From: Cyanobium sp. FGCU52
GTDB taxonomy: Bacteria; Cyanobacteriota; Cyanobacteriia; PCC-6307; Cyanobiaceae
DNA: 64,000 bases
Direction of reading: 5' to 3'
Assembly (NCBI GenBank): GCA_024958715.1
Contig: JANWUS010000044.1
Span: 5,009-69,008, forward strand
Shown one piece after another: positions 990-16,954 of this stretch (position 1 is its first letter; the number at the start of each line of letters is the position of its first letter). The notes beneath the pieces are model-generated. The model saw only the letters and a list, made by a program, of their open reading frames with translations. It was not told the DNA's origin and made no database searches. Both the position numbers and the translations under genes were made by a program.

Positions 990-2299
990 AACTTGAAAGC
1001 ATATCGCTTGCACACTGCGGCGGTTTCGAGCAACTTGATATTGCCTTTGAGCAGGATGTGACTCTAGTCGCAGGCGTCAACGGCGTAGGTAAATCCACAG
1101 TGCTGCACGCCTTGGCGGTCGTTCTGTCACGGGCACTTCCAGAATTCACGCCATCACGCTCCGCTCCTCTGTATTTCACAGATGACGACATTCACGCTGA
1201 AAAGGGCTCGTTGGAAGTGAGTGTCTGCCTTCAGCTCGATGGCCAGACCACTAACGCAGGGGTGCAGCGTCTACGTTCAGCCGAGGAGAAGGGAGACCGC
1301 TTCATCCTGTTGCGGCAGGCCGAATCCGCCACTGGCGCCGCTGATTTCGCGGACGTGCTCAACGCTCGCACGCTGACCGGCGATCTTGAGGCCGGCATGA
1401 AGGAAATGCGCACGGTGCTGGCCTCCCTGAAGAGCGCCGCCCACCCACCGCTTGCGGTGTATTTCACCCCCAAGCGACAGCTGCCCGGCCAGCCCCGCAG
1501 CCTGCCGGAGGCCAGGCCATTCGAGGTATCCATGGCCTTCAGCCGGGCGCTTCACGATCGTGAAATTGAGCTGCGGGAGTTCATGTATTGGTTCCGCACC
1601 CAGGAGAAGCTGGGCACGGCAGAGGAGCCGCGGCGCTTGAAGGTGTTGGACGCACTCCGGTCCGTTGTCACCGACCTGGTGCCTGAATTCAGCAATCTGC
1701 GGATCCAGGAGCACCCTCGCCTCGGGTTCGTGGTGGACAAGCGCGGCCAGCCCTTCTATCTGCACCAACTATCCGACGGCGAGCGTGGCCTGTTGGCCCT
1801 GGTTTTTGATCTCACCCGACGCTTGGCGATCGCGAATCCAGATAGTGACGATCCCATATCCGCAGGTGTGGCGCTGGTCTTGATCGATGAGATCGAGCTG
1901 CATCTGCATCCCAAATGGCAACGCAATGTCTTGCAGCGCTTGTGCGACATCTTCAAGGCTTGCCAATTCGTGGTGACCACCCATTCACCCCTTGTGCTGG
2001 GTGAGGTGCCGGCGCGTTGTGTGCGCTTCCTCGAATTCGTCGATGGCAAAGTGAAGGTGTTCACTCCCTCAGAGGCGTATGGCATGGATGCCAACCGCAT
2101 TCTGCAGGAGTTCATGGGGGCGCCGGTACGTAATCGGCAGGTGGAGGAAGAACTTGCGAATCTCTTCGAGTTGATTGACAATGAGGAGTTCGACAATGCT
2201 CGAATTGCGATGGCAGCGCTTGAAGAAAAGCTTGGCACAGCTGAGCCCGAATTAACCCGCGCCAGTTCGCTGATTCGCTTTCTGGAGGGCACTGACTGA
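986..2299 (+). CDS. ABC-type AAA ATPase, Septu PtuA / retron-effector-like
   Basis: Walker A GVNGVGKS, signature QLSDGERG, Walker B LVLIDEIELHLHPKWQR, H-loop TTHSP; immediately upstream of an HNH gene; ATGA overlap with hsdS. Confidence 0.8.
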   Translation: MKLESISLAHCGGFEQLDIAFEQDVTLVAGVNGVGKSTVLHALAVVLSRALPEFTPSRSAPLYFTDDDIHAEKGSLEVSVCLQLDGQTTNAGVQRLRSAEEKGDRFILLRQAESATGAADFADVLNARTLTGDLEAGMKEMRTVLASLKSAAHPPLAVYFTPKRQLPGQPRSLPEARPFEVSMAFSRALHDREIELREFMYWFRTQEKLGTAEEPRRLKVLDALRSVVTDLVPEFSNLRIQEHPRLGFVVDKRGQPFYLHQLSDGERGLLALVFDLTRRLAIANPDSDDPISAGVALVLIDEIELHLHPKWQRNVLQRLCDIFKACQFVVTTHSPLVLGEVPARCVRFLEFVDGKVKVFTPSEAYGMDANRILQEFMGAPVRNRQVEEELANLFELIDNEEFDNARIAMAALEEKLGTAEPELTRASSLIRFLEGTD

Positions 2300-2929
2300 A
2301 TGCGCACCATCCAGAAGGGCCCAGAGCCCCCCACACTCACGCAGCACCGGAAACAGCCACATGCCGTCTACGACAACTATCCAGATAAAGAGGCCTTAAG
2401 GGTCGCGCTTATTGCTGAACAGCGCGGTCTGTGCTGCTATTGCCAATCCCGCATCAGGCCATCGCACGAGCACATGAAGATTGAGCACTGGCAATGCCAG
2501 GACGCTCATCCGGATCGCCAGCTCGATTTCAGCAACTTGCATGGTGCTTGCCTTGGCGGCGAGGGGAGGCCGTACCGTGAGCAACATTGCGATACTCGCA
2601 AAGGCAAAGATGTGCTGTGCTTCAGCGTCTGCGATTCAACTCGCCCCATCGAGCACAAGATTCATTTCAAGGGCGATGGCAGAATCACTTCAGATGATCC
2701 TGCCATCGAGCAGGATATCAATGGGGTGCTGAATCTCAATCTGACAAGGTTGGTGAACAATCGCAAGGCTGTGCTGACTGCATTCAAGGAGCGGTTGGCG
2801 AGGGGGCCGCGACTCGATCCAGCCCGAGAACTTCAGAAATGGGACGGCAGCCAATCAGGTGAGCTGGAGCCATTCGCCCAAGTTGTCGTGTATTACTTGC
2901 AAAAACGGCAAGCCAGGCCCATTCGATGA
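2300..2929 (+). CDS. HNH endonuclease, TIGR02646 / PtuB-like
   Basis: [10 protein letters not shown]...IEHW...NLHGAC...HCDTRKG Zn/HNH motifs; the start codon abuts the ATPase stop (TGA 2297-2299, ATG 2300). Confidence 0.82.
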
Positions 2930-3528
2930 AGCCCATGGCTATCGAGGTTGCCACCAGTTCCCCCACCTGCTGGATCATCGCAGGCCCCAATGGCGCGGGC
3001 AAAACCACCTTTGCCCTGGAGTTTCTGCCGCGCACCGGCTGCATGCACTTCATCAATGCCGACCTGATCGCCGCCGGCCTGGCTCCCTTGGCACCTGAGC
3101 GAGAGTTGCTGGCGGCCAGCCGCCTGGTTCTGTGGGAACTCGAAACACGCATCGCGGCCCGCGACAGCTTTGCCTTCGAGACCACCCTCGCCGGCCGCAC
3201 CTATCTGCGCCTGGTTGAGCGCTTACGGCAACAGAGCTGGCGCGTGGAATTGATCTACCTGGCGCTGCCCAGCCCTGAAATGTCCGCCCTGCGGGTAGCC
3301 GAGCGCGTGGCTCACGGCGGCCACAACATCCCACAGTCCGACATCCAGCGCCGCTTTCCCCGCAGCCTGCGCCACCTGCTCCATGAGTTCAGCCATAGGG
3401 TGGATCGCTGCACCTGCTTCATGAACCACGCAGCCCGCCCAGTGCTGGTGTTCGAGCAAAATGGGCTGACGCGCACGATCCACGATCCCAGCTGGTATCA
3501 GCTGCTGCTCCACCAGGCCCAGGCATGA
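2926..3528 (+). CDS. Zeta-toxin-like P-loop NTPase (COG4185-like)
   Basis: [44 protein letters not shown] motifs typical of this family; ATGA overlaps on both sides. Confidence 0.75.
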
Positions 3529-3725
3529 CCACAACCACCAACACCCCCCAGGCCAGCCCCTCAGAACACGGCCGCCAGCTGCTGGACGCCCTCGGCCAGT
3601 CCGTCGCCAAGGCTCTGGACACCAAACGGCGCCTGGGCCACTACGCCGTGACCTGGCAGAACGGCAAACCCCTGCTGGTCGGCGATGACGCACCACCAAC
3701 CCAAGCGGCACCACCGGGCCGATGA
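3525..3725 (+). CDS. 66-aa protein coupled to the zeta-like gene (possible antitoxin or partner)
   Basis: ATGA overlaps with both neighbours; the [22 protein letters not shown] segment resembles small proteins I recall downstream of this NTPase family. Confidence 0.6.
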
Positions 3726-6700
3726 GCGACAAGCGCGTCTCCGAAACCGCCTTTGAGACGGTGATCGAAGCCCAGCTGCTCGCCGCTGGTTACACGGCGG
3801 TGGATGGCCAGGCCTTTGATCGCGAGCGCGCCATCTTCCCCGAGGAGGCGCTGGCCTTCATTCGCACCACCCAACCGCAGATCTGGAGCAAGCTGGAGGC
3901 CCTGCACGGCGAGCAGACCGGCCCTCGCGTGCTGGAGGCGCTGTGCAAGTGGCTCGACAGCTACGGAGCGCTGGCCACCTTGCGCCATGGCTTCAAGTGC
4001 TTCGGCAAAACCCTGCGGATCGCCTTCTTCCGGCCCGCCCATGGGCTCAATCCTGAGCTGGAGGCCCGTTATCAGGCCAATCGCGTTGGGCTCACACGCC
4101 AGCTGCACTTCAGCCCCAGATCCGAGCAATCGCTTGATGTGGTGCTGTCGGTGAATGGAATCCCAGTGGTCACGCTGGAACTCAAGAATCCACTGACAGG
4201 CCAGACCGTCAAGCACGCGATCAATCAATACCGGCAGGATCGTGATCCTCGTGAGCCGATCTTTGTCTTCACCAAGCGCAGCCTGGTGCATTTCGCGGTG
4301 GATACAGAAGAAGCCCATATGACCACCCGCCTGGCCGGATCCTCCACCCACTTCCTACCCTTCAACAAAGGTTTCAAGGGCAATGCTGGCAATCCACCAG
4401 ATCCCGAAGGCAGAAACTACAAGACAGCCTATCTCTGGGAAGAGGTGCTCCAGCGTGACAGTCTGCTCGATCTGCTGGCCCGCTTCCTGCATCTCTCCGT
4501 GGAGGAGAAGACGTCCGACCAAGGCAAGAAGATCCGCAAGGAAAGCCTGATCTTTCCCCGCTATCACCAGTTGGAAGCGGTCAGGTCGCTGCTTGCAGCG
4601 GTCGTCCGTGAAGGCGTTGGCCACAACTATCTGATTGAAAATTCTGCAGGCAGCGGCAAAAGCAATACCATCGCCTGGCTGTCACATCGTCTCTCCAGTC
4701 TTCATGACGATCAGGATCAGCGCCTCTTCGACAGCGTCGTCGTGATCACCGATCGCCTTGTTCTCGATCGCCAGCTGCAAGACACGATCTATCAATTCGA
4801 CCACCGTCAGGGCGTGGTACAGAAGATTGATGAAGATTCACGCCAGCTCGCCGAAGCCCTGCAGGCTGGTGTGCCGATCATCATCACAACCCTGCAGAAG
4901 TTTCCCTTTGTGAGCGAGCAGCTGTACAAGCTCAATGAGGAGCGAGGCCAAGCAGGTCAGGATCATCTGCCCACCCGCAAGTATGCGGTGATCATTGATG
5001 AGGCTCACAGCTCACAGTCGGGCGAAACAGCCACCGAACTCAAAGGCGTGCTTGGGGGTGCAGATCTTCGTAACAAAGCCAAGCAGATGGCGGACGAGGA
5101 AGAGGGTGTGGCACTGGAAGGCGTCTTTCGAGCCATGGCCAAGCGAGGCCAGCAAGCCAACATCAGCTTCTTCGCCTTTACAGCCACGCCCAAATACAAA
5201 ACATTTGTCCTGTTTGGACGCAATGGCGATGCTTTCCACCGCTACACCATGCGGCAGGCCATCGACGAGGGCTTCATCGAAGACGTGCTCAAGAACTATG
5301 TCACCTATAAAACCTATTACAAGCTGCTCAAGAAAGCGGAACAAGACCCGCATGTGGAGCGCAAGAAGGCGGCCAAGGCCCTCGCCCGCTTCATGAAGCT
5401 GCACCCCCACAACATCGCCCAAAAGACCGAAGTGATGGTGGAGCACTTCTATCTGTCCACACGCCACAAGATCGGTGGCCATGCCAAAGCAATTGTTGTG
5501 ACGGGCTCGCGCCTGGAGGCGGTGCGCTACAAGCAAGGGTTTGATCAGTACATCCAAGCCAAGGGATATCCGATCAGGAGCCTCGTCGCCTTTTCCGGCA
5601 AAGTCGAAGACGACAAGCTACCTAACACGAGCTATACAGAAGTCGACATGAACGGTGGCATCAAGGAAAAGGATCTGCCCGAGGCCTTCGCAACCCCCGA
5701 GTATCAGGTGCTTTTGGTGGCTGAAAAGTACCAGACCGGCTTCGATCAACCCTTGCTGCACACCATGTATGTCGACAAGCGGCTCTCTGGTATCCAGGCC
5801 GTCCAGACCCTGTCGCGCCTGAACCGCACCCATCCGCTCAAGGAAGACACCTTTGTCTTGGATTTTGTCAACAATCCAGAAGAGATCCAGGAAGCCTTCA
5901 AGCAATATTATGACGGCGCTGTGATGGGAGAAGAGGTTGATCCCGATAGGCTCTATGAACTAAAGGTTGATCTCGACGCATCTGGCATTTACCTGCAAAG
6001 CGAAGTCGATGAATTCTGTAGAATGTTCTTTGCTCCAAAACGCCGTCAGAGCCCAAGCGATCACAAAGCGATCAACGCCATTCTTGATCAAGCACGAGCA
6101 CGTTTTGTGCAATTCCAAGCCAAGGATGACGAAGAGGCTGAGCTATGGCGCGGCAAACTGCAAGCCTTCAGCAACCTATACAGCTTCCTCAGCCAGGTCA
6201 TCCCCTATCAGGACAGCGACTTAGAAAAGCTGTATACCTACCTTCGCCATCTGGCGCTGAAGCTTCCTAAACGAAGCCTCGGCAAGAGCTACCAGTTCGA
6301 CGACGAGATCGATCTCAACTATTACCGGCTGCAGAAAATCAGCGAAGGCTCAATCAGCCTCTCTGAAGGGCAAGCCACACCATTGGACGGCCCCCATGAG
6401 GTGGGAACTGGCTTATCCCGGCCAGAGCAGGTTCCGCTCTCTCGCTTGATTGATCTGATCAACGAACGTTTTGGCGGTGAACTCAACGACGCTGATCAGC
6501 TCTTCTTCGATCAGATTGTCGAGACAGCGAGCCAAAGCGAAGGCCTTGAGCAAGCTGCCAAAGTGAACTCTCTTGATAAGTTTCGACTTGTCTTTAACCA
6601 GACCTTGGACGCATTGTTTATTGAGCGCATGGAGCTCAATGAAGAACTCTTTGCCGACTACATGGGCAGACCCGAACTGCGGGATTTGATCAGCGACACC

Positions 6701-6742
6701 TTGGGGAAGCAGGTCTACAAGCGATTTCGTGAGCCAATGTGA
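3722..6742 (+). CDS. hsdR: Type I restriction endonuclease subunit R
   Basis: 1006 aa; nuclease motif DVVLSVNGIPVVTLELKN, helicase motifs SAGSGKS, IIDEAHSSQ, FTATP, TGFDQP and QTLSRLNR. Confidence 0.95.
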   Translation: MSDKRVSETAFETVIEAQLLAAGYTAVDGQAFDRERAIFPEEALAFIRTTQPQIWSKLEALHGEQTGPRVLEALCKWLDSYGALATLRHGFKCFGKTLRIAFFRPAHGLNPELEARYQANRVGLTRQLHFSPRSEQSLDVVLSVNGIPVVTLELKNPLTGQTVKHAINQYRQDRDPREPIFVFTKRSLVHFAVDTEEAHMTTRLAGSSTHFLPFNKGFKGNAGNPPDPEGRNYKTAYLWEEVLQRDSLLDLLARFLHLSVEEKTSDQGKKIRKESLIFPRYHQLEAVRSLLAAVVREGVGHNYLIENSAGSGKSNTIAWLSHRLSSLHDDQDQRLFDSVVVITDRLVLDRQLQDTIYQFDHRQGVVQKIDEDSRQLAEALQAGVPIIITTLQKFPFVSEQLYKLNEERGQAGQDHLPTRKYAVIIDEAHSSQSGETATELKGVLGGADLRNKAKQMADEEEGVALEGVFRAMAKRGQQANISFFAFTATPKYKTFVLFGRNGDAFHRYTMRQAIDEGFIEDVLKNYVTYKTYYKLLKKAEQDPHVERKKAAKALARFMKLHPHNIAQKTEVMVEHFYLSTRHKIGGHAKAIVVTGSRLEAVRYKQGFDQYIQAKGYPIRSLVAFSGKVEDDKLPNTSYTEVDMNGGIKEKDLPEAFATPEYQVLLVAEKYQTGFDQPLLHTMYVDKRLSGIQAVQTLSRLNRTHPLKEDTFVLDFVNNPEEIQEAFKQYYDGAVMGEEVDPDRLYELKVDLDASGIYLQSEVDEFCRMFFAPKRRQSPSDHKAINAILDQARARFVQFQAKDDEEAELWRGKLQAFSNLYSFLSQVIPYQDSDLEKLYTYLRHLALKLPKRSLGKSYQFDDEIDLNYYRLQKISEGSISLSEGQATPLDGPHEVGTGLSRPEQVPLSRLIDLINERFGGELNDADQLFFDQIVETASQSEGLEQAAKVNSLDKFRLVFNQTLDALFIERMELNEELFADYMGRPELRDLISDTLGKQVYKRFREPM

Positions 6743-6765
6743 CTGCGAGGTATCTGTTGGCGGAG

Positions 6766-6854
6766 GTCGAACAATCCGATGCAACTGACCCGCATCCAGT
6801 GCGTCCATTGATCACCACAAGATCTTTGCGGGCAGGTGATCGGAAGCGTTCGAA
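6766..6854 (+). mobile_element. attC site 1 (integron cassette recombination site), 89 bp
   Basis: GTCGAAC (6766-6772) ... GTTCGAA (6848-6854). Left arm tccgat[g]caactg[a]cccgca pairs with right arm tgcgggcaggtgatcgga, with two unpaired bases and one mismatch. It lies 23 nt after the hsdR stop. Confidence 0.8.
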
Positions 6855-6982
6855 GGAGGATTGAAGCTCTATCCACATGGGTCGTTCATACCGTAAAGAT
6901 TTATGCCTATTTTACGCTGATGCGCCGGCCGCTTGCCTTGGCAAGGAAATACTGGAAAAAATCCACTTCATGGAGGAGCATC

Positions 6983-7252
6983 ATGAGTCTTTGGTTCGTG
7001 ACAGTTCCCGGGAAACTTGATCGGTACTTTTATTGCGAGAGCCAGTCAGTCAACAATGCTTTTGAGTTAATTAAGAAAAGCTTAGGTTGGCCGTCATTGT
7101 CCTGTGATGCAACGGGCGAGGGGCCAACAGCAAGTGCAGTCAATATGTTCAAGCCCTCGGATGAGATTCTTATTATTTTGGCACGAGATGGCATATTTGA
7201 AATAAGAAACGCTGAGAGTATGCCACCATCGCAATCTCTTATGCCATTCTAA
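6983..7252 (+). CDS. Orphan 89-aa protein, first ORF of cassette 6849-8835
   Basis: GGAGGAG Shine-Dalgarno just before ATG 6983. The longer 6836 start lies inside attC1 and is unlikely. No recognisable domain. Confidence 0.55.
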   Translation: MSLWFVTVPGKLDRYFYCESQSVNNAFELIKKSLGWPSLSCDATGEGPTASAVNMFKPSDEILIILARDGIFEIRNAESMPPSQSLMPF

Positions 7253-7259
7253 ATAAAAT

Positions 7260-7282
7260 GTGGTTTCCGGTACTGGAACCAC
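7260..7282. other. Intergenic hairpin between the two ORFs of the cassette
   Basis: gtggtttcc-ggtact-ggaaccac imperfect inverted repeat; no U-tract on the + strand. Confidence 0.35.
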
Positions 7283-7321
7283 GCCGCTAACTCACTCAAT
7301 CAAAACCATCTGAGGTGTCTT

Positions 7322-8688
7322 ATGGAACTGACGGCCGTCCTTGCTTCTGAATACATCAATCTTTGGGATAACTGCACGATCAACCCACGCTATGAAAGTG
7401 ACGTAGTTTGGTCTATTCAGAAAATCAGCGAGAGTAGACAGCTCTACGAGAAAGTCTCCGCAAAGACAGGTGTGCCCTGGTATGTAATAGCCGTTATCCA
7501 CAGTCTTGAGTCAAGTATAGATTTTAGCACGCATCTTCATAATGGAGACCCATTGTCCTCACGAACTAAAAACGTGCCTCAAGGCAGGCCTTTACATGGC
7601 ACTCCTCCATTTACATGGGAAGATTCAGCTATTGATGCCTTAAACTATGATGGCGCTTGTGGAGTAAGAAACTGGGATTTACCCACTCTTTTTGGTTTCT
7701 TGAAGGGTTTAATGGTTGGGGATATAGGATAGGCTCTGGCAGGAAAACTACACCAGCGCAACGTAGTGCGTACTTATTTTCAGGAACGAATCATTATGAA
7801 AAGGGGAAATATGTCGCCGACGGGTCCTTTGACCCGGAAGCCATTAGTGCACAGGTTGGCTGTATGGCCTTGCTCAAAGCACTTGAGAAGAATGGCCAAA
7901 TATGCATATCTCCATCAGCTGGGGAGCAGCTTAATGAAAACATAGTGGGATCAGTTCAAGCCTGGCAGCACCTCCTGAACGGGTGTGGATATCTACCATC
8001 ACTGATTATAAATGGACATCTTGATGCTGCTACAGTCCAGTTAACTAAGAGTTTCCAGACGGATTTAGGATTAGACGTAACGGGAGGTGTTGATTTGTCG
8101 ACCTGGAAGGCTGGCCTGAGGCATAAGAAGCTTCCAGGATGGCAACAAATTGTCCCACCACTATCCTCTATCAAAAATCCACCACCACGTATAGCGCAAA
8201 AGAATCCGAGGAATTATGCTAGCGGTGGTAACACAACAAGAAGGCTTCATGACTTTTATTCACGAGAAAACAACTATGATTCTGTTTACGACAATGTCAT
8301 GAGTTGGTACGGCACAACTAGCAACGGGTGTACCGCTTTTGTTTCAACCGCGCTTCGACTAATTGACTATGATGTGCCGATTGAGACCAATGCCGAAGGA
8401 TTTAATATTTCTCTTTGGACGGCAGCTCTCTCAGGGTACCTGGAAGATAAAGGCTGGAAAAGATCGGACCTTGCTAATAACATGTTGCCAGGCGATATCG
8501 TTTTTACTGACGATGGTGGGTATGATGATGGCATACCTTGCCACGTATATGTATTCTCTAAATGGCATGACTCATCCAAAGAAGTCGCATGGGTTATAGA
8601 CAATCAGGCCTTCACTCATAGACGTAACATCTACGCTGGTGGTGGTGGCTTCAACTTCTCTCCCTTTGCATATTTTTTACGCGACTAG
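7322..8688 (+). pseudogene. Three-domain peptidoglycan hydrolase (COG5526-like lysozyme + PG-binding + NlpC/P60-like), split by a -1 frameshift at 7689-7693
   Basis: ORF 7322..7732 has TGVPW..IAVIH.LES..DF.THLHNGDPL..RT..VP.GRP..PPFTWEDSA.DAL. ORF 7657..8688 continues it with EGFNGWGY...YLFSGT..Y.KGKYV.DG.FD, then a PG-binding-like segment and a GCTAFVS...PGDIVF...HV papain-like domain. Adding one T to the T5 run gives the continuous reading LPTLFWFLEGFNG. Confidence 0.75.
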
Positions 8689-8749
8689 ACTTATCATGAT
8701 ATTGGCCATAGTGGCTGGCCTATAGATATGGGTTGTTTAGATGATCCCC

Positions 8750-8841
8750 TTCGAACAAGCCCCTCGAGTGGACAGGCCCCCACTAGCCCTCTGCTGCGCC
8801 ACCCAGAGCTCCCTGCCTGCCACTCAGGGGCAGCGTTGGAA
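8750..8841 (+). mobile_element. attC site 2, 92 bp
   Basis: TTCGAAC (8750-8756) is the exact reverse complement of GTTCGAA at 6848, which opens this cassette. Arms gcccct[c]gagtgg / ccactcaggggc; ends GTTGGAA (8835-8841). Confidence 0.82.
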
Positions 8842-8938
8842 GGGCTCCAGAGATATTACGAAGCGATAGCAAGCTTCAAATACGAATGCCGACTCTTACA
8901 GCCATCCGCAAGTGAAGTTATTATGATATATTACTCTT

Positions 8939-9535
8939 TTGACAAGACCAGAGAAAGTCATTAACCTTGATAGGTCACAGCGTAAATCAATGGAGGATCT
9001 TCTAGAGAACAATGACACTGGGAAAGTCACCTACAAAAGGCACAATAAAGTTATCGTTTTCGCGGCTCTGACTGGTGTTGTATTTACTGGCGTTATAGTT
9101 GTTGCTTTCTTAACAAGTCTCATTGGCAAGAGCGGTGGGGAGCAGTTCCCAAAGGTATATTTTCTACTTATTTCATCCATTCTCGGAGCGCTTGTCAACC
9201 AGCCGTTTCGTGGCGCAGAAGACAATGCAAGCAAAGGGGCCTCTCTATTGGTTCTATATTTGGCATGGAAATGCGCAATTGCTTCTGTATTCGCCATTAT
9301 TGTTAATCTTATCTTTATCTCGGGCGTGATTAGTGGCGAGCTATTCCCGCAGTTTGAGGGAGCAAATAGGTCCTATAGAGACATGGTTAGCTGGGCACTA
9401 GAAGTAGATCCCAAGACCAATGCGGATATGGCTAAAATGTTGATCTGGAGTTTTGTTGCTGGTTATTCAGAAAAACTTGTTCCAAACATGGTGACGAAGA
9501 TCTTTGTCATGCCGGAGCAGGACAATAGAGGATAA
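8939..9535 (+). CDS. Uncharacterised multi-pass membrane protein (cassette 8836-9681)
   Basis: About four hydrophobic segments; GELFPQF and AKMLIWSFVAGYSEKLVP motifs; alternative start ATG 8990. Confidence 0.7.
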   Translation: MTRPEKVINLDRSQRKSMEDLLENNDTGKVTYKRHNKVIVFAALTGVVFTGVIVVAFLTSLIGKSGGEQFPKVYFLLISSILGALVNQPFRGAEDNASKGASLLVLYLAWKCAIASVFAIIVNLIFISGVISGELFPQFEGANRSYRDMVSWALEVDPKTNADMAKMLIWSFVAGYSEKLVPNMVTKIFVMPEQDNRG

Positions 9536-9603
9536 GAAATAAATATAGATTGAATGTCCTGGGATTAAGTCAAGTTTTGGGATTTTGTGATGCCAAAGCA
9601 GCC

Positions 9604-9687
9604 TTCCAACATCAAGATGCAGAAGACAGGACCGTAGTCTGCTTCCTGTGCCGAGGTTTATGCCCGCTTCTGATCTTGGCGTTAGAT
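9604..9687 (+). mobile_element. attC site 3, 84 bp
   Basis: TTCCAAC (9604-9610) is the reverse complement of GTTGGAA at 8835. Arms caagat[g]cagaag / cttctgatcttg; ends GTTAGAT (9681-9687). Confidence 0.85.
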
Positions 9688-9812
9688 GGGCCCAAAGGCT
9701 TCCTTCCTGCCAACTCCTTCTGCCTTGCTCCCAAGTTGGATTCTGCAGAACTTAATGCGTAAGTCGCAGCCCTGGACTATACTCTCAAGGACATTCATAT
9801 TCTTATGATGCC

Positions 9813-10340
9813 ATGAAGAGAGAGCAAGCTCTTATTGAAACTCTCTTGGCCGAAATTGAATCAATGCCGATTGGCAATGGCGGGACGGTGCCAGCGCAGT
9901 ACTTCTTCTTGAAGCTGAACAACATTTCCTCGGAGCTTAATCCTGGCCACTTCGCCGCAATTGAGTCCGCGCTCACAGCTGTTCGACAGCATGAAAACCT
10001 TCCCTTCTCACAGGGAAAGATCACCTATCACCTTAGGCTACTTCTTGAAGAAGGTCTCATAAGCGCTGTGCTGTCTGAGACCTATGACGGCACTTTTATC
10101 GCCGTGAAGGGTCTAACAGCGAAAGAGCATAACTACTTGGACGACCGTCGTAAAAAGGAAGAGGGGCCGCTCTTAAAGGCGCTCAACGCATCCAAGGCGA
10201 ACGCTCCTGAATGGGTTGCACGATCCCTGATCACAGATGGCTTAAAATGGTTTCTTGGATTTGTAGGAATCCTCGCTACTTCTCAGATTCCTGCCGTTAA
10301 GCAGTTTTTGCTTAGTGCTTGGTTTGGTCAGCATCATTGA
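9813..10340 (+). CDS. DUF2513-like protein with C-terminal hydrophobic extension (cassette 9682-10480)
   Basis: MKREQALIETLLAEIE ... ITYHLRLLLEEGLI ... GLTAKEHNYLD matches the recalled DUF2513 pattern MKRD.DLIR.ILL.IE/YH..LL...GLI/LT..GH.FLD. Confidence 0.6.
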   Translation: MKREQALIETLLAEIESMPIGNGGTVPAQYFFLKLNNISSELNPGHFAAIESALTAVRQHENLPFSQGKITYHLRLLLEEGLISAVLSETYDGTFIAVKGLTAKEHNYLDDRRKKEEGPLLKALNASKANAPEWVARSLITDGLKWFLGFVGILATSQIPAVKQFLLSAWFGQHH

Positions 10341-10398
10341 GGAAGACTCTGATCGATTACAGTCAGTTACTTGGGACTCATTCTTGCAGCGATAGGCC

Positions 10399-10486
10399 AT
10401 CTAACATCAAGATCCAGCGGCCTGGGCAAGGGGTTGCCTGAAATGCGTGCTGAGATTTCTGCCGCCGCTGATCTTGAGCGTTGGGC
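10399..10486 (+). mobile_element. attC site 4, 88 bp
   Basis: ATCTAAC (10399-10405) is the reverse complement of GTTAGAT at 9681. Arms tcaagat[c]cagcggc / gccgctgatcttga; ends GTTGGGC (10480-10486). Confidence 0.88.
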
Positions 10487-10499
10487 GCCAGGAGGTACC

Positions 10500-10532
10500 A
10501 TGAGTATTCTCAAGAGGAGGGCCAAGTCATGA
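10500..10532 (+). other. 10-codon leader mini-ORF (MSILKRRAKS) whose stop overlaps the cupin start
   Basis: AGGAGGT at 10490-10496 precedes ATG 10500; TGA 10530-10532 overlaps ATG 10529. Confidence 0.35.
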
Positions 10533-10972
10533 GTTCCAAGCCATTTGTCGTCAGACCAGCTGATCGCAAGCCGGCTCTTACCGTTGTCGGCACTCAGGTC
10601 ACCGTCCTTGCATCAGGGTCCGACACCCAAGACCAGCAGATTACGGTGCAGTTGGGTGACGAAGGGACGGGGCCGCCGCCGCACAGCCACCCTTGGGAAG
10701 AGTCGTTTTACGTCACCAAGGGCCAGGTTGAGTTCACGTGTGGTGGCGAAACTACCAAGTGCACAGCAGGGACACTCGTCCATATTCCAGCCGGTACGGT
10801 TCATGCGTTTAGCTATGGTCCGGGTGGCGGCGAAATGCTGGAAATCACTGGTAGACGAAGCAAGGCGATTTCGATGTTCACCGCGCTGGATCGCGAGGTT
10901 CCGCCTGGTTCGCCAGACGTCGCGAAAGTGATCCAGGTTGCAGGCGAGTACGACGTCAAGTTTCACATCTGA
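10529..10972 (+). CDS. Cupin domain protein (cassette 10481-11090)
   Basis: PPPHSHPWEESFYV..G and IPAGTVHAF cupin motifs; GAGGAGG SD at 10514-10520 supports ATG 10529. Confidence 0.85.
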   Translation: MSSKPFVVRPADRKPALTVVGTQVTVLASGSDTQDQQITVQLGDEGTGPPPHSHPWEESFYVTKGQVEFTCGGETTKCTAGTLVHIPAGTVHAFSYGPGGGEMLEITGRRSKAISMFTALDREVPPGSPDVAKVIQVAGEYDVKFHI

Positions 10973-11001
10973 TTCGGCTCCAGCACTTGCCTGTGCTTGT
11001 C

Positions 11002-11096
11002 GCCCAACAACGCGCTCCAGCCGACGCTCAAGTCGCCGCTGCGCGCTCCATGAGTTCCCTCGCTACGCTCGGCGCGGCTGAGCGCGGGCGTTGGGC
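11002..11096 (+). mobile_element. attC site 5, 95 bp
   Basis: GCCCAAC (11002-11008) is the reverse complement of GTTGGGC at 10480. Arms cgcgct[c]cagcc / ggctgagcgcg; ends GTTGGGC (11090-11096). Canonical RYYYAAC/GTTRRRY. Confidence 0.9.
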
Positions 11097-11231
11097 TGTA
11101 TGCCAGCCTGGGATGACATCTGCCTTAGGTGAGCGCGCCTTGGCCAATTGTGTATGTTCGTGAACATATGGCCATCTGCGTCGCGTGCCATGGCTTGACT
11201 TGGTATCTAGCTATAAGTTAACGGAGCAAGC

Positions 11232-11561
11232 ATGAAAGAATCGCAATCAGATCCAAGCTTGCAAGCTGGCTTTGTTAAGCCTATTGGCCGTTATACGTAT
11301 TCTTTGTTTGCAAGAGATGAGCATGCTGGCCCGATCTTCCTCTATGACACGGGCGGAGCGCTGATAGGGCGCATTTACTTCTTTACTAGAACTCCATCCC
11401 AAGCAACATTGCCACCTCCGTCAATTCGGCAGGATGGAACTGTCGAGCTGGTCTATTGGGTGGCGGCCTTTACGGACATAATTTGTATGCTTGGTAACGA
11501 AGCGTATAAAGCCCTTATTTGGACTGGAGATGATAACAGTCGGATCTCGACCGGCTCTTAG
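11232..11561 (+). CDS. Orphan 109-aa protein (cassette 11091-11731)
   Basis: Single ORF between attC5 and decayed attC6, with ggag upstream of the ATG; no recognisable domain. Confidence 0.55.
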   Translation: MKESQSDPSLQAGFVKPIGRYTYSLFARDEHAGPIFLYDTGGALIGRIYFFTRTPSQATLPPPSIRQDGTVELVYWVAAFTDIICMLGNEAYKALIWTGDDNSRISTGS

Positions 11562-11644
11562 TGATAAGTTAGAAGTAAATTTGCTGCCTTGATCCTTTTG
11601 CGGAGTCCATGCTACGTGGGTTAAGTCTGCCGAGGAGCGGTTTC

Positions 11645-11737
11645 TCCCAGCAAGCCCATCGAGTGCATTGGCCAGCACCATCCCCGCTGCTCAGCAGCCC
11701 CAAACTACTTGCCACCCAGTCAGGGAGAGCGTTAGGC
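11645..11737 (+). mobile_element. Decayed attC site 6, 93 bp
   Basis: tcccagcaagcccatcgagtgcattggcc aligns with the start of attC2 (ttcgaacaagcccctcgagtggacaggcc), but AAC has become AGC and the arms pair poorly. It ends GTTAGGC (11731-11737), directly before the tspO SD and start. Confidence 0.6.
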
Positions 11738-11753
11738 CGCAGGAGGGGCGTCG

Positions 11754-12266
11754 ATGACCGAGCGAAAAGGATTCCGTTGGTGGCATGCCGCGCTCATCCT
11801 CGCGGGTGCCAACGCCATCAGCGCCCTCCCTGCGGGCTTTGGCGGCGACTTCGTCTTCTACAACTCCTTCCGCCAGCCCGCCATCGCCCCGCCTGACTGG
11901 GCCTTCGCCCCGGTGTGGCTGTTCCTCAACGTCACCTCGCTCGTCGCCCTGTCTCGCATCGCCAACTTCCCCGAGCGATCATCTGCCACAACCTTGTTCC
12001 TGTGGTCCGAGGGTGTGGCGTGGGTGCTGTTCGCCGCCTTCACCACGGTGTACTTCCTCCTGCACAGTCCGGTCCTCGCGGCAGCGGACACGGTCGCCGG
12101 GCTCCTGGCCGGCCTGGTCAGCCTGGCGTGCGCTTTCCGGCTCGACCGCCTGTCGGCAGGGTTCATCCTGCTGCGTGTGCTGTGGCTTGTGCTGGCCACC
12201 TACGTGTCGCTGTTCGTGGCTTTGTCTAACGCGGATCCGTTCCTGGGGATCAGCGCCCTCTGGTGA
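11754..12266 (+). CDS. tspO: TspO/MBR family tryptophan-rich sensory protein
   Basis: FYNSFRQPAIAPPDWAFAPVW motif, five hydrophobic segments, AGGAGG SD. Confidence 0.85.
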   Translation: MTERKGFRWWHAALILAGANAISALPAGFGGDFVFYNSFRQPAIAPPDWAFAPVWLFLNVTSLVALSRIANFPERSSATTLFLWSEGVAWVLFAAFTTVYFLLHSPVLAAADTVAGLLAGLVSLACAFRLDRLSAGFILLRVLWLVLATYVSLFVALSNADPFLGISALW

Positions 12267-12274
12267 TGGGCGCC

Positions 12275-12661
12275 ATGAACCCGCAGGTCACCTTCGAGAC
12301 GGATTTCTTCAAGCCGCTGCCCGGTGAAGAGGAGCAGACCAATCCCGGCTGCTATGGGCAAGCGCTGGCGCTGTGGCTCCGGGATCAGCTCGTAAGTCGC
12401 GGTGTGTCTGTGGAAGAGGTTCTGCCGGAAGACTTCGGCTGGGTTGTGCTGGTTACCCGCCAACCCTTCCTGCTCTGGCTGGGTTGTGGCAACACCGATG
12501 GATCCACCACGGAGTGGATCATCTTCCCCCATGCGGAACGTTCGTTGCGGCAGCGCATCTTCGGCGGGCCCGATCCCTCGGCGGCTGTTCAGGAGTTGTG
12601 GAGCCATGTTCAGGTGCTGGTGCCCACCATTCCTGGGTTGCGGGTGGTCACCTGGCAGTAG
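12275..12661 (+). CDS. Hypothetical 128-aa protein
   Basis: VTFETDFF...TNPGCYGQALALWL...EDFGW pattern, a type I recall from gene cassettes; function unknown. Confidence 0.65.
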   Translation: MNPQVTFETDFFKPLPGEEEQTNPGCYGQALALWLRDQLVSRGVSVEEVLPEDFGWVVLVTRQPFLLWLGCGNTDGSTTEWIIFPHAERSLRQRIFGGPDPSAAVQELWSHVQVLVPTIPGLRVVTWQ

Positions 12662-12824
12662 CGCCCTCGGCTCACTGTGCAGGAGGCAAGCGTGAAGCAT
12701 TCTTTGCGGTGTCAGTTCATGACGTGCGTGAGTGGTCTGGGCGACGGCGGCTAGTAAGGGAAACCACTACCTGCCGAGGCGGCAGGCGCCTCGCCTCGTC
12801 CTGGCCTGAGTTCACGAGCCTCCG

Positions 12825-14255
12825 ATGCGACATCCCTGCCTGGCCCTGGCCTCTTCGCTGGTGGCCCTGCTCGCTGCTCCTTCGCTGGCTTCGGCGGCCG
12901 CCCCTCCGGCTCCGCTCACGCCGCAGGAGGCCGTGGCGATCGCCACCGATGCCTACATCTACGGCTATTCGCTCGTCACCACCGACGTGACGCGGCTTCA
13001 GATGTCCAATGTCGCCAAGGCGTCGGAACTGAAGGCGCCGCTCAACCAGTTCCTCAACATCAAGCGCTATCCGCCGGCGACCTACCGCGGCGTGTCGGCG
13101 CCCAATGCCGACACCCTCTATTCCCTGGCCTGGCTCGATCTCAAGCAGCCGCAGGTGTTCAGCCATCCGGACATGGGCAAGCGCTTCCACCTGTTCCCGA
13201 TGGTCGATCTGTGGATGACGATCTTCGCCAGCCCGGGCACCCGCACCGGCGACAGCAAGGCCGCCAACTACCTGATCACCGGTCCCGGCTGGAAGGGCGC
13301 GGTGCCAGCGGGCATGAAGCACATCCCGGCCGCCACGCGCTACATCGTGATCCTCGGCCGCACCTACGCCGACGGCACCGAGGCCGACTACAAGGCCACC
13401 AATGCCCTGCAGGCCCAATACCGGATCACTCCGCTGTCGGCCTGGGGCAAGCCTTACAAACCTGCGCCGCCGCCGGTGGATGCCAACCCCGGCATCTCGA
13501 TGACCGACAAGCCCCAGGCGGTGATCCTGGCGATGGGCACCGAGGGCTACTTCAACTGGCTGAGTAAGCGGATGTGCACCGACGCGCCCGCCTACGCGGC
13601 CGATGCGCCGGCGCTGGCCCGCTTCGCCAGAATCGGCTTCCAGCCCTGCAAGCCCTTCACGCTCTCCAAGCTCAACCCTGCCGTGCAGGCGGCGCTGCAG
13701 GATCTGCCCACCACCGCGCTCGCGCGCATCGGCGCCAACCAGCAGAGCCTGGGGGTGATGGTCAACGGCTGGCAGGTCACCAAGGGGCTGGGCGTCTACG
13801 GCACCGATTACCTCAAGCGCGCTGTGGTGGCCGCCTTCGGCTGGCCGGCTAACCTGCAGCAGGACGCCGTCTACCCCTACACGCTCGTCGACAGCACCGG
13901 CGAGCGGCTCAGCGGCGATCACCGCTACACGCTCACCTTCGCCAAGGGGCAGACGCCGCCGGTGAACGGTTTCTGGTCGATCACGATGTACATGATCGAT
14001 CAGGGCTGGTGGTTCGTGCCCAACCCGCTCAACAAGTTCACCGTGAGCCCGCGCGACAACCTCAAGCCCAATCCCGATGGCTCGATCACCCTCTACCTCC
14101 AGAAGGATTCACCGGGCAAGGACAAGGAAGCCAACTGGTTGCCCGCCCCCGCCGACGACTTCATCCCGATGCTGCGGATGTACTGGCCCAAGGACACAGC
14201 GCCCTCGATCCTCAACGGCACCTGGACGCCGCCGATGGTCAAGCGGGTTCCGTAG
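12825..14255 (+). CDS. Exported DUF1254/DUF1214 domain protein
   Basis: Signal peptide; AYIYGY, PNADTLYSLAWLDL, GFWSITMY, NPDGSITLY and MLRMYWP motifs. Confidence 0.88.
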   Translation: MRHPCLALASSLVALLAAPSLASAAAPPAPLTPQEAVAIATDAYIYGYSLVTTDVTRLQMSNVAKASELKAPLNQFLNIKRYPPATYRGVSAPNADTLYSLAWLDLKQPQVFSHPDMGKRFHLFPMVDLWMTIFASPGTRTGDSKAANYLITGPGWKGAVPAGMKHIPAATRYIVILGRTYADGTEADYKATNALQAQYRITPLSAWGKPYKPAPPPVDANPGISMTDKPQAVILAMGTEGYFNWLSKRMCTDAPAYAADAPALARFARIGFQPCKPFTLSKLNPAVQAALQDLPTTALARIGANQQSLGVMVNGWQVTKGLGVYGTDYLKRAVVAAFGWPANLQQDAVYPYTLVDSTGERLSGDHRYTLTFAKGQTPPVNGFWSITMYMIDQGWWFVPNPLNKFTVSPRDNLKPNPDGSITLYLQKDSPGKDKEANWLPAPADDFIPMLRMYWPKDTAPSILNGTWTPPMVKRVP

Positions 14256-14331
14256 GTCGCCGCCTGTTCGAAAGCAGGCTGGTGAAGGATTCCATCGCTT
14301 TGCTTCCCAGTTTCCCGGCAAGCTGAACACT

Positions 14332-14889
14332 ATGCAGCTCCTTGCGCCTGTGCCAACTATGAACATACGCAGACTGAAAGCTCCCCTTTCACTCCTGGTG
14401 GTGTTCCTTGCATGGGGCGAAGAGAGTGCCGCAACCGCCCAGGTCAACAACTTCTATGCAGGCACGGCTTCTAATGGGCAGGCCGTGAATGTCGACCTGG
14501 GGAGCATCCGCCAGGTCAGCGCCTCGTCGTTGGATTTCACCTACTACCTTGGGGATCTGCGTGTCTACGCCCAGGCCAACTGCCCAGGAAGCTACTGGGT
14601 CAGTTTTCCGGAGAGACAGGTCAACAGGCCACAGTCAAGCGCCACCCAGCGCATGCTCTCGAAGGTGTGTTCCTATCTCGGGGGGTCTTCATCCCCAGCC
14701 CGCTCATCCACAGGCGCAGCGCTTGTCTTTGATCCGCCAAGCAACATCAGGTCGTCCCCGAACGGACCCATTCTCTGCTCTGTTCGCTCTCGCACCATGA
14801 TCAATGTTTATGGCAGATCGGGGCAATGGTACGCAACCGACTTCTGTGGTCCACAGGGCTATATTCATGAAAATCAGCTGAGATTCTGA
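14332..14889 (+). CDS. Exported protein with C-terminal bacterial SH3-like domain
   Basis: Hydrophobic N-terminus (start 14332 or 14359); C-terminal VFDPPSNIRSSPNG...GQWYATDFCG..GYIH..QLRF. Confidence 0.65.
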   Translation: MQLLAPVPTMNIRRLKAPLSLLVVFLAWGEESAATAQVNNFYAGTASNGQAVNVDLGSIRQVSASSLDFTYYLGDLRVYAQANCPGSYWVSFPERQVNRPQSSATQRMLSKVCSYLGGSSSPARSSTGAALVFDPPSNIRSSPNGPILCSVRSRTMINVYGRSGQWYATDFCGPQGYIHENQLRF

Positions 14890-15093
14890 GGCGATGTTCA
14901 TGATGGCTTTCTCGCGACGCCATCGTTCACCACGTTCTCAGCGGGAATCCTGGATCAGCCCCACCGGCAGAGCTTGCTGATGCCGTCATTGCCCGGGGCC
15001 GCACCATGCTGGCGGGTGTGCTCATTTGCGGACAGGCTCTGAAGCTCAAGCCGTCACCTGCAGAAATGCGCTATATAGTCCGACCACGTTGAG

Positions 15094-15162
15094 GTAGGGA
15101 GATCATCTCTCTCTTCCCTGCCTAAAGCCTTGGGCCGAGGCTCAAGGCTTCGCCCAGGCGAA
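15094..15162 (+). promoter_or_regulatory. Three tandem hairpins in the leader of the GMC gene
   Basis: gtagggag..ttccctgc; aagccttgggc-cgag-gctcaaggctt (11 bp with one G-U); ttcgcc-ca-ggcgaa. Confidence 0.3.
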
Positions 15163-15193
15163 CGCAGGATCCACAACCAGACAGGATAAACGT

Positions 15194-16873
15194 ATGACAT
15201 TCAAGCCGGCTGACTATGTGAATTTCGTTGCTGAGCGCACGCGGGCCGGCGAGAGGCTGTTTCTGGAGTACACGGGGCCGCGTAATGACTTTGACATCAT
15301 CATTGTGGGATCAGGCATCGGCGGCGGGTTGCTGGCCGATGATCTGGCTGAACGGGTCGGCAAGAGCAAGCGCATCCTTGTGCTGGAGGCGGGCTCCTAT
15401 CTCTATCCCACACACGCTTACAACTTCTGCCGCTTCCCCAACAGCAGCCTGGCCAAGCATTTCGCTTGTGATACGTTCTGGCAGTCTGGCAATAACTCCA
15501 GCGAATTCTTCATTGATGAGAAGCCTCAGCTCAACTTCGGCGGTCGTTCGATCTTCTGGTCGGGGCTGATCCCAACGCCTCAAGGTTGGGAGATGGACTA
15601 TTTCCCCCAACGTGTGAGGCAGGATCTCAACGGCGGCCTGCTGGAACGGGCGGGTGCGGTGATGCTGGCCTCCCGTTCGATGGGCAGCACGGCAGAGGCG
15701 GTTGTCGCCCGCCTACGCCAATCGAGCCTGGCAGCCGATTTCTCGATTCAGCAAACGCCGCGCGCTCTCCATCAGCCCTATCTCAAGGATGACGGCAGCC
15801 CCAGTGAGGAGCACTTCACCGAACCAACGGGCGTGTTCAACACCGCTGAACTGCTCATCAATCAACTGGGTCTGACTCCCGGCGTCAGCCATGGTGATGG
15901 CCCTGGCCTGCACCTGCTGCTGAATTCCTTCGTGGAGGATGTGCGCCGATCCGGCAGCGGCCATGAGCTTGTGGTGCGCAACACGCTCAGCGGCCAGGCC
16001 CGTATCTTCACGGCTCCGCAGGTGGTGCTGGCCGCTGGCTCGATTGAGAGTCCGAAGCTGCTGCGCCGCTCGTCGCTCTTCGCTTCACTCCCGGCGCCGG
16101 TTCAGGGTCTTGTGGGCAGGGGGCTCACCGATCATCCAACAACGAGTGAGATCTCCACCTACGTGAACCGGATTGGCAATGTCACCCTCGACGCCAGTGA
16201 TCACGCCAAGATCGTTTTCTACTCCAGAGGGCTTCGCGATAACGGCGTCATTCGCTACCCCTTCAATGTTGAGCTCAACCTGAACCACGAGTATTGGCAC
16301 CTGCGGGAGAACGACCCCGGCGAGTCAGCCCGCCCTGCGGGCGGCCCCACGGGTGCGGCACGCGTGGACATCAAGTTCAGCTTCGCCAACTGCCTCGATA
16401 ATGACAACCAGATCCATGCGGCCCCGCCCTTCGGTTATGTGCCGCAGGTTGTTTTCCGCAACCAAAGCTGGGTTGATCATCTCTCCCAGGTTCGCCTGCC
16501 GGCCCTGGCTGGCTGGCAGAAGAGCCCCACGCAGATCTGGGCCGTGCTGAACGACATCACCTACCGGATCATGTCCGAGTTTTCGATGGATGGCGTCTCC
16601 GCCCGGCCCGCAGGAGAGGTGTGGTACGGCCAGGGCGGCAAGGGTTTTGGCTGGGGGACGGTTCATCACGCTGCTGGCAGTCTGCGGATGCCGTATCGCC
16701 CCAGGTTGGATGCCCCCTTCGCGCCTGATTCGGTTGTGGACGAGGATCTGAAGGTGATCGGAACCTCCGGGCTGTATGTCTGCGATATGTCGGTGATGCC
16801 CCTGAGTTGTGCCGCCAATCCGGTGCGCCCTCTGGCCGCCCTGGCCCTGCGTTTATCGCAGCATCTGAGTTAG
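15194..16873 (+). CDS. GMC-family FAD-dependent oxidoreductase
   Basis: DIIIVGSGIGGG dinucleotide fold, RILVLEAG, GGRSIFW, VVLAAGSIESPKLL, HHAAGSLRM, CDMSVMP...ANP motifs. Confidence 0.85.
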   Translation: MTFKPADYVNFVAERTRAGERLFLEYTGPRNDFDIIIVGSGIGGGLLADDLAERVGKSKRILVLEAGSYLYPTHAYNFCRFPNSSLAKHFACDTFWQSGNNSSEFFIDEKPQLNFGGRSIFWSGLIPTPQGWEMDYFPQRVRQDLNGGLLERAGAVMLASRSMGSTAEAVVARLRQSSLAADFSIQQTPRALHQPYLKDDGSPSEEHFTEPTGVFNTAELLINQLGLTPGVSHGDGPGLHLLLNSFVEDVRRSGSGHELVVRNTLSGQARIFTAPQVVLAAGSIESPKLLRRSSLFASLPAPVQGLVGRGLTDHPTTSEISTYVNRIGNVTLDASDHAKIVFYSRGLRDNGVIRYPFNVELNLNHEYWHLRENDPGESARPAGGPTGAARVDIKFSFANCLDNDNQIHAAPPFGYVPQVVFRNQSWVDHLSQVRLPALAGWQKSPTQIWAVLNDITYRIMSEFSMDGVSARPAGEVWYGQGGKGFGWGTVHHAAGSLRMPYRPRLDAPFAPDSVVDEDLKVIGTSGLYVCDMSVMPLSCAANPVRPLAALALRLSQHLS

Positions 16874-16914
16874 CCCCTGCAGGCCAGCGCCATGGGTGTC
16901 TGGCGTCATTCCTG

Positions 16915-16954
16915 GGCTGGGTTGCGGCAACACATCTTCGGCGGCTCCGATCCC
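16915..16954 (+). repeat. Deleted relic copy of part of the 12275..12661 gene
   Basis: 16921-16954 matches 12544-12577 at 30/34 nt; 16915-16933 matches 12477-12495 at 18/19 nt. Confidence 0.7.

Follow-up and report, generated by a model that had tools for sequence, protein, structure and literature searches.

In this study we analysed a stretch of 64,000 nucleotides of Cyanobium sp. FGCU52 (hereafter the window), which corresponds to C44:5009-69008, where C44 is contig JANWUS010000044.1; positions given without a contig are those of the window. Between 6766 and 11737 it contains six imperfect hairpins that had been taken, from the letters alone (the sequence-only reading), for attC sites of an integron cassette array. 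The genome assembly comprises 3.48 Mb in 87 contigs, has a GC content of 68.5% and includes at least nine phycobiliprotein genes.

Recombination sites and cassettes of the window

The six hairpins were found exactly where they had been claimed. They are 84-95 bp long, and each starts 23-83 nt past the stop codon of a plus strand open reading frame (ORF). The span of a site was taken from the R'' box (seven bases ending in AAC) to the R' box (seven bases starting with GTT). On the plus strand, attC1 (6766-6854) has GTCGAAC as R'' and GTTCGAA as R', attC2 (8750-8841) TTCGAAC and GTTGGAA, attC3 (9604-9687) TTCCAAC and GTTAGAT, attC4 (10399-10486) ATCTAAC and GTTGGGC, and attC5 (11002-11096) GCCCAAC and GTTGGGC. 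The decayed last site of the array, attC6 (11645-11737, same strand), has TCCCAGC instead of GCCCAAC as R'' and GTTAGGC as R'; both of its arms resemble those of attC2, with several mismatches. Thus, the GTT end box is present in all six sites and the AAC box in five, with AGC in attC6. Outside GTT and AAC, the core bases deviate from RRRY in attC1 and attC2. Published work names the GTT triplet as the sole conserved part of the core (PMC2811028).

In the alignment all six sites share one layout around a variable centre: the R'' box is followed by two bases, six paired bases, an extra G or C and another six paired bases, and the right arm mirrors the left one without extra bases and ends in (A/G)GC before GTT. 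The extra C or G in the left arm had been reported for five sites; its presence holds, and the count has to be raised to six of six. Five of the six sites have another extra base 6 bp further in, which reads A on the top and T on the bottom strand. These extra bases are confined to the R''/L'' arm. Failure of the bottom strands to fold as attC had been named as a possible refutation. In single-stranded DNA folding, the bottom strands of sites 1-5 form an R box and an L box separated by an unpaired spacer of 2-3 nt; one base of the R''/L'' arm stays unpaired, and the z-scores range from -1.65 to -2.98 (attC1, -2.98; attC3, -2.21; attC4, -2.51; attC5, -2.55). The bottom strand of attC6 gives z = +0.5.

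With the crossover placed between G and TT, the sites delimit cassettes at 6849-8835, 8836-9681, 9682-10480, 10481-11090 and 11091-11731, and the limits proposed earlier are exact. Reciprocal complementarity of the opening and closing cores is perfect in cassettes 1-4 (7/7 bases); in the probable fifth cassette it is only partial, with five of seven bases pairing (GTTGGGC vs TCCCAGC). When R' and R'' boxes from the 26 sites of the genome are paired at random, 5% of the combinations are perfectly complementary. The chance of four perfect junctions out of four is therefore about 6e-6, and it falls to about 3e-7 for five out of five when the upstream pair attC0/attC1, described below, is included.

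Rfam scans of the window and three further loci returned only a tRNA; Rfam holds no attC family. Two home-made covariance models were used instead, R1 built from the bottom strands of window sites 1-5 only and R2 built from 44 matches; attC6 belongs to the training set of neither. Because attC1-attC5 are training sequences of R1 and R2, their scores are not independent. R1 gives these five sites 73-89 bits when the bottom strand is read and no more than 17 bits for the top strand (attC1, 89 bits vs only 9 on the opposite strand), and R2 scores them at 81.8, 84.6, 66, 62.8 and 59.6 bits in the order of the array. The best non-training match in the window is attC6, with 18.9 bits (E = 0.019) in R1 and 24.5 bits (E = 3e-4) in R2. 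In the 64-kb window R2 finds exactly these six sites and nothing else below E = 0.26. Across the genome R1 detects 16 further sites at E <= 2e-5, and a filter-free search adds weaker ones beside the integrase gene of contig C39. The matches that a covariance model was expected to return were thus obtained and are strand-specific, although with R1 and R2 and not with the curated attC model of IntegronFinder.

The paired positions also covary. Over 41 distinct sites, 88% of the cells at paired positions are paired, compared with 65% in shuffles and 32-42% with slid partners; double changes are seen in 214 cells, against 77 expected, and in 17 of 24 pairs. The AAC/GTT pairs are near-invariant in this set, and the outer R-box pairs are looser, which is expected of bases that form part of the adjacent cassette. 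Judged by sequence and predicted fold, the six hairpins are genuine integron recombination sites, of which attC6 is decayed yet detectable.

All five cassettes have their genes on the plus strand, and their DNA is AT-richer than the backbone, as had been noticed (43-60% GC in cassettes 1-5, 70-71% in the flanking backbone). Cassette 1 (1,987 bp) contains an ORF of 89 amino acids (6983-7252) and a gene for a peptidoglycan-binding protein (7322-8688; PG_binding_1). Five consecutive T (7689-7693) mark the point where the latter gene breaks up into two overlapping frames, owing either to a true frameshift or to an assembly error in this homopolymer. The C-terminal domain of the peptidoglycan-binding protein shares 24% identity with that of a 414-amino-acid ORF two cassettes upstream (C44:974-2218). 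Cassette 2 (846 bp) carries a 198-amino-acid ORF of unknown function (8939-9535), cassette 3 (799 bp) a DUF2513 protein of 175 amino acids (9813-10340; Pfam), cassette 4 (610 bp) a cupin protein of 147 amino acids (10529-10972; Cupin_2, E = 8e-15) and cassette 5 (641 bp) a 109-amino-acid ORF of unknown function (11232-11561). Searches of Pfam, NCBIfam and PADLOC gave no match for the ORFs of cassettes 2 and 5, for the 89-amino-acid ORF or for the first cassette on contig C68 (see below). A terminator scan of the array revealed no excess.

The upstream defence cassette and the ends of the array

An additional attC site (attC0) was detected with R1 at C44:2243-2329, 2.7 kb upstream of the window. 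Its R' box, GTTCGAC, occurs once among the 26 R' boxes of the genome and is the exact reverse complement of the attC1 R'' box GTCGAAC; it therefore accounts for the opening attC1 core that had been left unpaired in the sequence-only reading. Between attC0 and attC1 lies a stretch of 9,533 bp (C44:2324-11856, plus strand; 57% GC), of which 1-6848 falls into the window. By its limits, this stretch would be a single cassette and is a candidate for the largest on record. When the 4-kb threshold of IntegronFinder was set, the largest cassettes known were about 2 kb (PMC4889954), and a unit of 4 kb was not recovered in a capture assay, from which its authors infer a size limit (bioRxiv 10.64898/2026.03.17.712381).

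According to Pfam and PADLOC matches, the 9,533-bp unit contains a tightly packed operon on the plus strand in the order hsdM-hsdS-ptuA-ptuB-kinase-like ORF-small ORF-hsdR. The hsdM gene (718 amino acids) lies upstream of the window, which begins with the end of hsdS (429 amino acids; 3-989). This is followed by the genes for the PtuA ATPase (986-2299; E = 9e-123) and the PtuB HNH nuclease (2300-2929; E = 1e-74), a zeta-toxin/AAA_33-like ORF (2926-3528), an ORF of 66 amino acids (3525-3725) and hsdR (1,006 amino acids; 3722-6742), which ends 23 nt before attC1. A type I restriction-modification operon thus encloses, between its hsdS and hsdR genes, the Septu pair (PtuA, PtuB) and the zeta-toxin/AAA_33-like and 66-amino-acid ORFs. 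The same operon order is found in a cyanobacterium of another family (G021, contig C73) at about 68% nucleotide identity. No attC match was obtained within 20 kb of that operon, in a search with a model trained on Cyanobium-type sites that might miss another attC family.

The first 50 nt of contig C44 are also present at the ends of other contigs. They belong to a multi-copy insertion sequence (IS) seen at C44:1-50, at C68:1-48 and at no fewer than 15 other contig ends, with inverted repeats that end in ...CAGCAAGCCC. The apparent target duplication of this IS is the 6-bp sequence TANNTA; its interior is absent from the assembly, where contigs also break off at members of several further IS families. 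The possibility that C44 starts with a group II intron was considered and rejected: Rfam gave no match, and with its inverted repeats and TANNTA flank this end behaves like the tip of an IS. Nor could contigs be joined through overlapping ends, as nearly all of these ends are tips of one or another multi-copy IS.

Four other lines of evidence point to contig C68 as the neighbour of C44. In four relatives, the homologue of C68:1959-onward lies to the left and that of C44:21960-onward to the right of an attC region. The tips at the beginning of C68 and C44 represent the two ends of a single IS family, share the terminal CAGCAAGCCC and are each followed by TACGTA, in agreement with the TANNTA duplication at the other copies. 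When the flanks are joined minus one TACGTA, an open frame of 364 amino acids with an ATG runs across the joint; upstream of the junction this frame is open for 96 codons with C68 and for 13 with C3, the only other candidate. Finally, the attC site of C68 (531-441) has the R' box GTTGGGC, which matches the attC0 R'' box GCCCAAC. From this we infer that C44 is linked across the IS to the beginning of C68 in reverse orientation.

If so, the head of the array lies on C68. Its first cassette opens with GTTATGC and closes with GCATAAC; it encodes (locus L012 on C68, 456-1181, minus strand) a protein of 241 amino acids with a hydrophobic C-terminal segment, without a Pfam match, whose frame enters the attC site. 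C68 also carries a stretch of 30 nt that runs up to the GTT of this opening core and agrees in 29 positions with the site on the 3' side of the integron integrase gene (intI) of contig C39. This stretch is preceded by a related hairpin, and the R'' box of the first cassette matches its core. This attI-like site would be the attI of the array, which depends on the joining of C68 and C44. Directly upstream of it lies a YkuD L,D-transpeptidase gene of the conserved high-GC backbone.

The sequence-only reading had seen no intI in the window, and there is none on the whole of C44. No TIGR02249 match was obtained on C44 or C68, and a tblastn search of C68:1-4000 with IntI gave only noise, with no intI pseudogene. 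It had also placed attI or intI upstream of the window according to the polarity of the array. This was partly right: an attI-like head does lie upstream, on C68 beyond the IS, but it is adjoined by chromosomal backbone and not by intI. The resulting order is attI-like site, first cassette, a two-gene cassette split by the IS, the 9.5-kb cassette, five small cassettes and the decayed attC. Eight attC sites are present in one orientation, seven on C44 and one on C68, and R' and R'' match perfectly at each of the seven junctions in a row between attI and attC5 and partly at the last one.

At the other end, 5.2 kb of intermediate GC content (63%) separate attC6 from the conserved backbone (11738-16950). 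The genes of this stretch, all on the plus strand, encode TspO, a DUF1254/DUF1214 protein and a GMC oxidoreductase, and the stretch is absent at this locus in relatives. A search of it for decayed attC sites gave no match better than E = 0.26, and a GCCTAAC box that would pair with the last core is also missing.

Integrases and cassette turnover in the genus

Two intact intI genes are present elsewhere in the genome, at C39:9903-10991 and C66:228-1262. Their products score 457 and 446 bits against TIGR02249 (cut-off 265), are 71% identical to each other and are closest to Cyanobium and Synechococcus records (72-83% identity). Integron integrases of Synechococcus and integrons of cyanobacteria have already been described (PMC3108266, PMC4889954). 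On C39, intI, a hairpin, a site ending in GTTCGAA and the cassettes follow each other on a single strand. Both intact intI genes point towards their own attI and cassettes, i.e., they have the co-directional ('inverted') layout. R1 matches lie directly downstream of the C39 intI and also downstream of intI in five other genomes fetched by the IntI protein, each time in the same orientation relative to intI. Four of these five genomes are named Cyanobium, Synechococcus or Vulcanococcus. A further contig, CALRTY020000017.1 (locus L044), is labelled as a metagenome-assembled genome of Chitinophaga pinensis and contains a Cyanobium-type intI (69% identity) with Cyanobium-type attC sites on both sides; it is probably mis-binned, otherwise it would reflect a transfer.

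The core-matching rule also holds in the arrays on C39, C72 and C13. In the C39 integron a MazE/MazF (PemK) toxin-antitoxin cassette occurs twice in tandem (locus L028, 14194-15718), and three very short cassettes have their ORFs, if any, on the opposite strand. C-terminal remnants of intI were observed at C13:6528-6689 and C80:30042-30149, each with attC sites nearby on its contig (within a few kb), which suggests further decayed integron platforms in this genome.

The position of the array is shared within the genus. In six of six congeners, attC matches are found upstream of the C44:21960 homologue in the same orientation, and in four of these six C68-like backbone also lies on the other side of the attC region. 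In all five congeners that were searched for it, intI is on contigs other than the syntenic array; in one of the relatives (G014) 12.8 kb of contig upstream of the array gave no intI match.

The content of the array is not shared. In a DNA search of 18 species of the genus the cassette genes remained unmatched, and only the attC repeats, chiefly attC2, were found at 80-91% identity. The cassette 3 protein gave no match in 100 other species of the genus. Cassette 2 recurs in another species (G110, contig C4) with 77% nucleotide identity: the homology starts exactly at the G of GTTGGAA and stops just past attC, and the rest of that locus matches this genome only in attC repeats. In a third species (G048, contig C131), a homologue of the cassette 5 ORF (65% amino acid identity) lies between two attC matches. 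Fixed synteny of the cassette genes without GTT-bounded variation had been set in advance as a ground for rejecting the array; instead, the recurrence of cassette 2 in G110 and of the cassette 5 ORF in G048 represents such variation. Since the cassette content is unlike that of every congener searched, turnover since speciation is implied.

An array without an adjacent integrase

Taken together, structural covariation, strand-specific matches, the same sites beside intI and the recurrence of cassette 2 uphold the earlier interpretation of the hairpins as attC sites of integron cassettes. We read the locus as an integron cassette array on the chromosome of a freshwater picocyanobacterium of the Cyanobium type, whose distal part lies in the window; most probably (roughly 85%) the array is a CALIN (cluster of attC sites lacking an integron integrase) in which attI is retained. 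A CALIN has at least two attC sites on one strand and no integron integrase nearby, which is what we find here, and a complete integron has an adjacent intI, which is missing. Because no integrase gene adjoins the array and none lies on C44 or C68, the integrase-less form is the better of the two alternatives offered before. The array shares the constant position of a sedentary chromosomal integron (6/6 congeners). Such integrons have more than about 19 homogeneous attC sites, whereas eight sites and no adjacent integrase are found here.

Presumably, the two IntI genes elsewhere in the genome can service the array in trans. In single-stranded DNA, the attC bottom strand would fold into a hairpin in which a spacer separates the R and L boxes and some bases are extrahelical. 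An IntI acting in trans would bind this hairpin and cut the GTT core between G and TT; recombination of two attC sites would then free a cassette as a circle, and recombination of attC with attI would re-insert it. Binding, cutting and circle formation in this scheme are those of established integron biology. The complementarity of opening and closing cores would result from this exchange during excision and re-insertion.

Several observations weigh against this interpretation. The bottom strand of attC6 folds poorly, and parts of the array are eroding, as one site has decayed, an IS splits one cassette and one gene is frameshifted. In a consensus scan of the array outside the attI region, promoter-like sites were not enriched and no cassette promoter (Pc) was identified. 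The alignment behind the pair counts was fitted to the model and tilts towards structure, and the covariance models are home-made. Moreover, the joint of C44 and C68 was drawn from a fragmented, metagenome-type assembly, and the rival contig C3, with a flank of 62% GC, shares the IS tip and the flank.

The signs of decay raise the question whether the array is a fossil, i.e., whether IntI made the sites long ago and they can no longer recombine, so that the locus is now a low-GC island. Decayed attC6, the IS insertion, the frameshifted gene and the missing integrase would all fit such a relic; yet no structural feature is missing from sites 1-5 or the upstream site, their cores are still perfectly complementary, both IntI genes of the genome are intact, and the cassette content differs from that of all congeners searched. 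We therefore regard a fossil array as unlikely. A complete integron, with intI and attI beyond the contig break (for instance from C39 or C66) and the link to C68 an assembly illusion, would agree with the polarity of the array, which places attI upstream, and with the two intI contigs, which end in repeats shortly after or before cassettes, so that their arrays continue somewhere. C3 has the IS end and the flank of C68. Against this, ORF continuity, GC content and the R'/R'' match favour C68, four relatives have C68-like backbone to the left of the array, and in five relatives intI lies on contigs other than that of the syntenic array, with 12.8 kb free of intI upstream of it in G014; this alternative is improbable. 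We give next to no credence to a generic intergenic repeat unrelated to integrons, such as terminators or elements resembling repetitive extragenic palindromes or miniature inverted-repeat transposable elements: the sites form palindromes behind ORFs, and copies with 80-91% identity are found across the genus, but their AAC/GTT boxes are nearly invariant, the asymmetry of the extra bases is consistent, the cores are complementary across cassettes and not within one site, each array has one orientation, they lie beside intI in six genomes, and there is no excess of terminators.

The array, read as a CALIN with an attI-like head, is a known kind of element, and its unusual point is the 9.5-kb cassette with a seven-gene anti-phage operon upstream. 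As in the CALINs described by Cury et al. (2016, PMC4889954), attC sites lie on one strand without a nearby intI, complete integrons exist elsewhere in the genome, and the cassettes are mostly of unknown function and include no resistance gene; mobilisation of CALINs in trans was proposed in the same work. The array differs in keeping an attI-like head and in occupying a locus that holds attC sites in six of six congeners. The 9.5-kb gap between attC sites exceeds the default 4-kb clustering threshold of IntegronFinder, and the tool would therefore split the array. The atypical co-directional ('inverted integrase') layout was described for Treponema denticola (PMC3607928). C39 and five other genomes likewise have intI transcribed towards attI and cassettes, and the attC sites of the window are of the same family, but the array in the window lost its adjacent integrase or never had one. 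Similar to the superintegron of Vibrio cholerae with its repeats (VCRs), the array is chromosomal, has genus-wide attC subfamilies (80-91% identity), varies in cassette content between relatives and is accompanied by toxin-antitoxin cassettes elsewhere in the genome. The Vibrio cholerae superintegron has well over a hundred sites, whereas the array described here has eight (about 26 in the genome), is cut by an IS and is one of several loci. Bacteriophage resistance integron cassettes (BRiCs) also present a defence system as an attC-bounded cassette (bioRxiv 10.1101/2024.07.02.601719); those reported are units of one or two genes, in contrast to the seven genes of a type I restriction-modification system with a nested Septu system over 9.5 kb.

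In summary, this study provides a resolved integrase-less array of a picocyanobacterium, with an attI-like head, a tail (the decayed attC) and chromosomal flanks defined and the likely trans-acting integrases identified. A single locus with attC sites in all six congeners and intI on other contigs is useful for asking how CALINs arise. It is tempting to speculate that the 9,533-bp unit is one functional cassette, so that a whole seven-gene defence operon could be excised and re-inserted by IntI, a suggestion that we put forward tentatively and consider rather doubtful. If it is true, integrons would traffic multi-gene defence islands of four to five times the accepted cassette size, and the attC-free operon of G021 would form a before-and-after pair for the unsolved question of cassette origin. 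As a candidate for the largest cassette, the unit makes it directly testable how large a piece of DNA IntI can recombine and how integrons spread defence systems among phototrophs of ecological importance.

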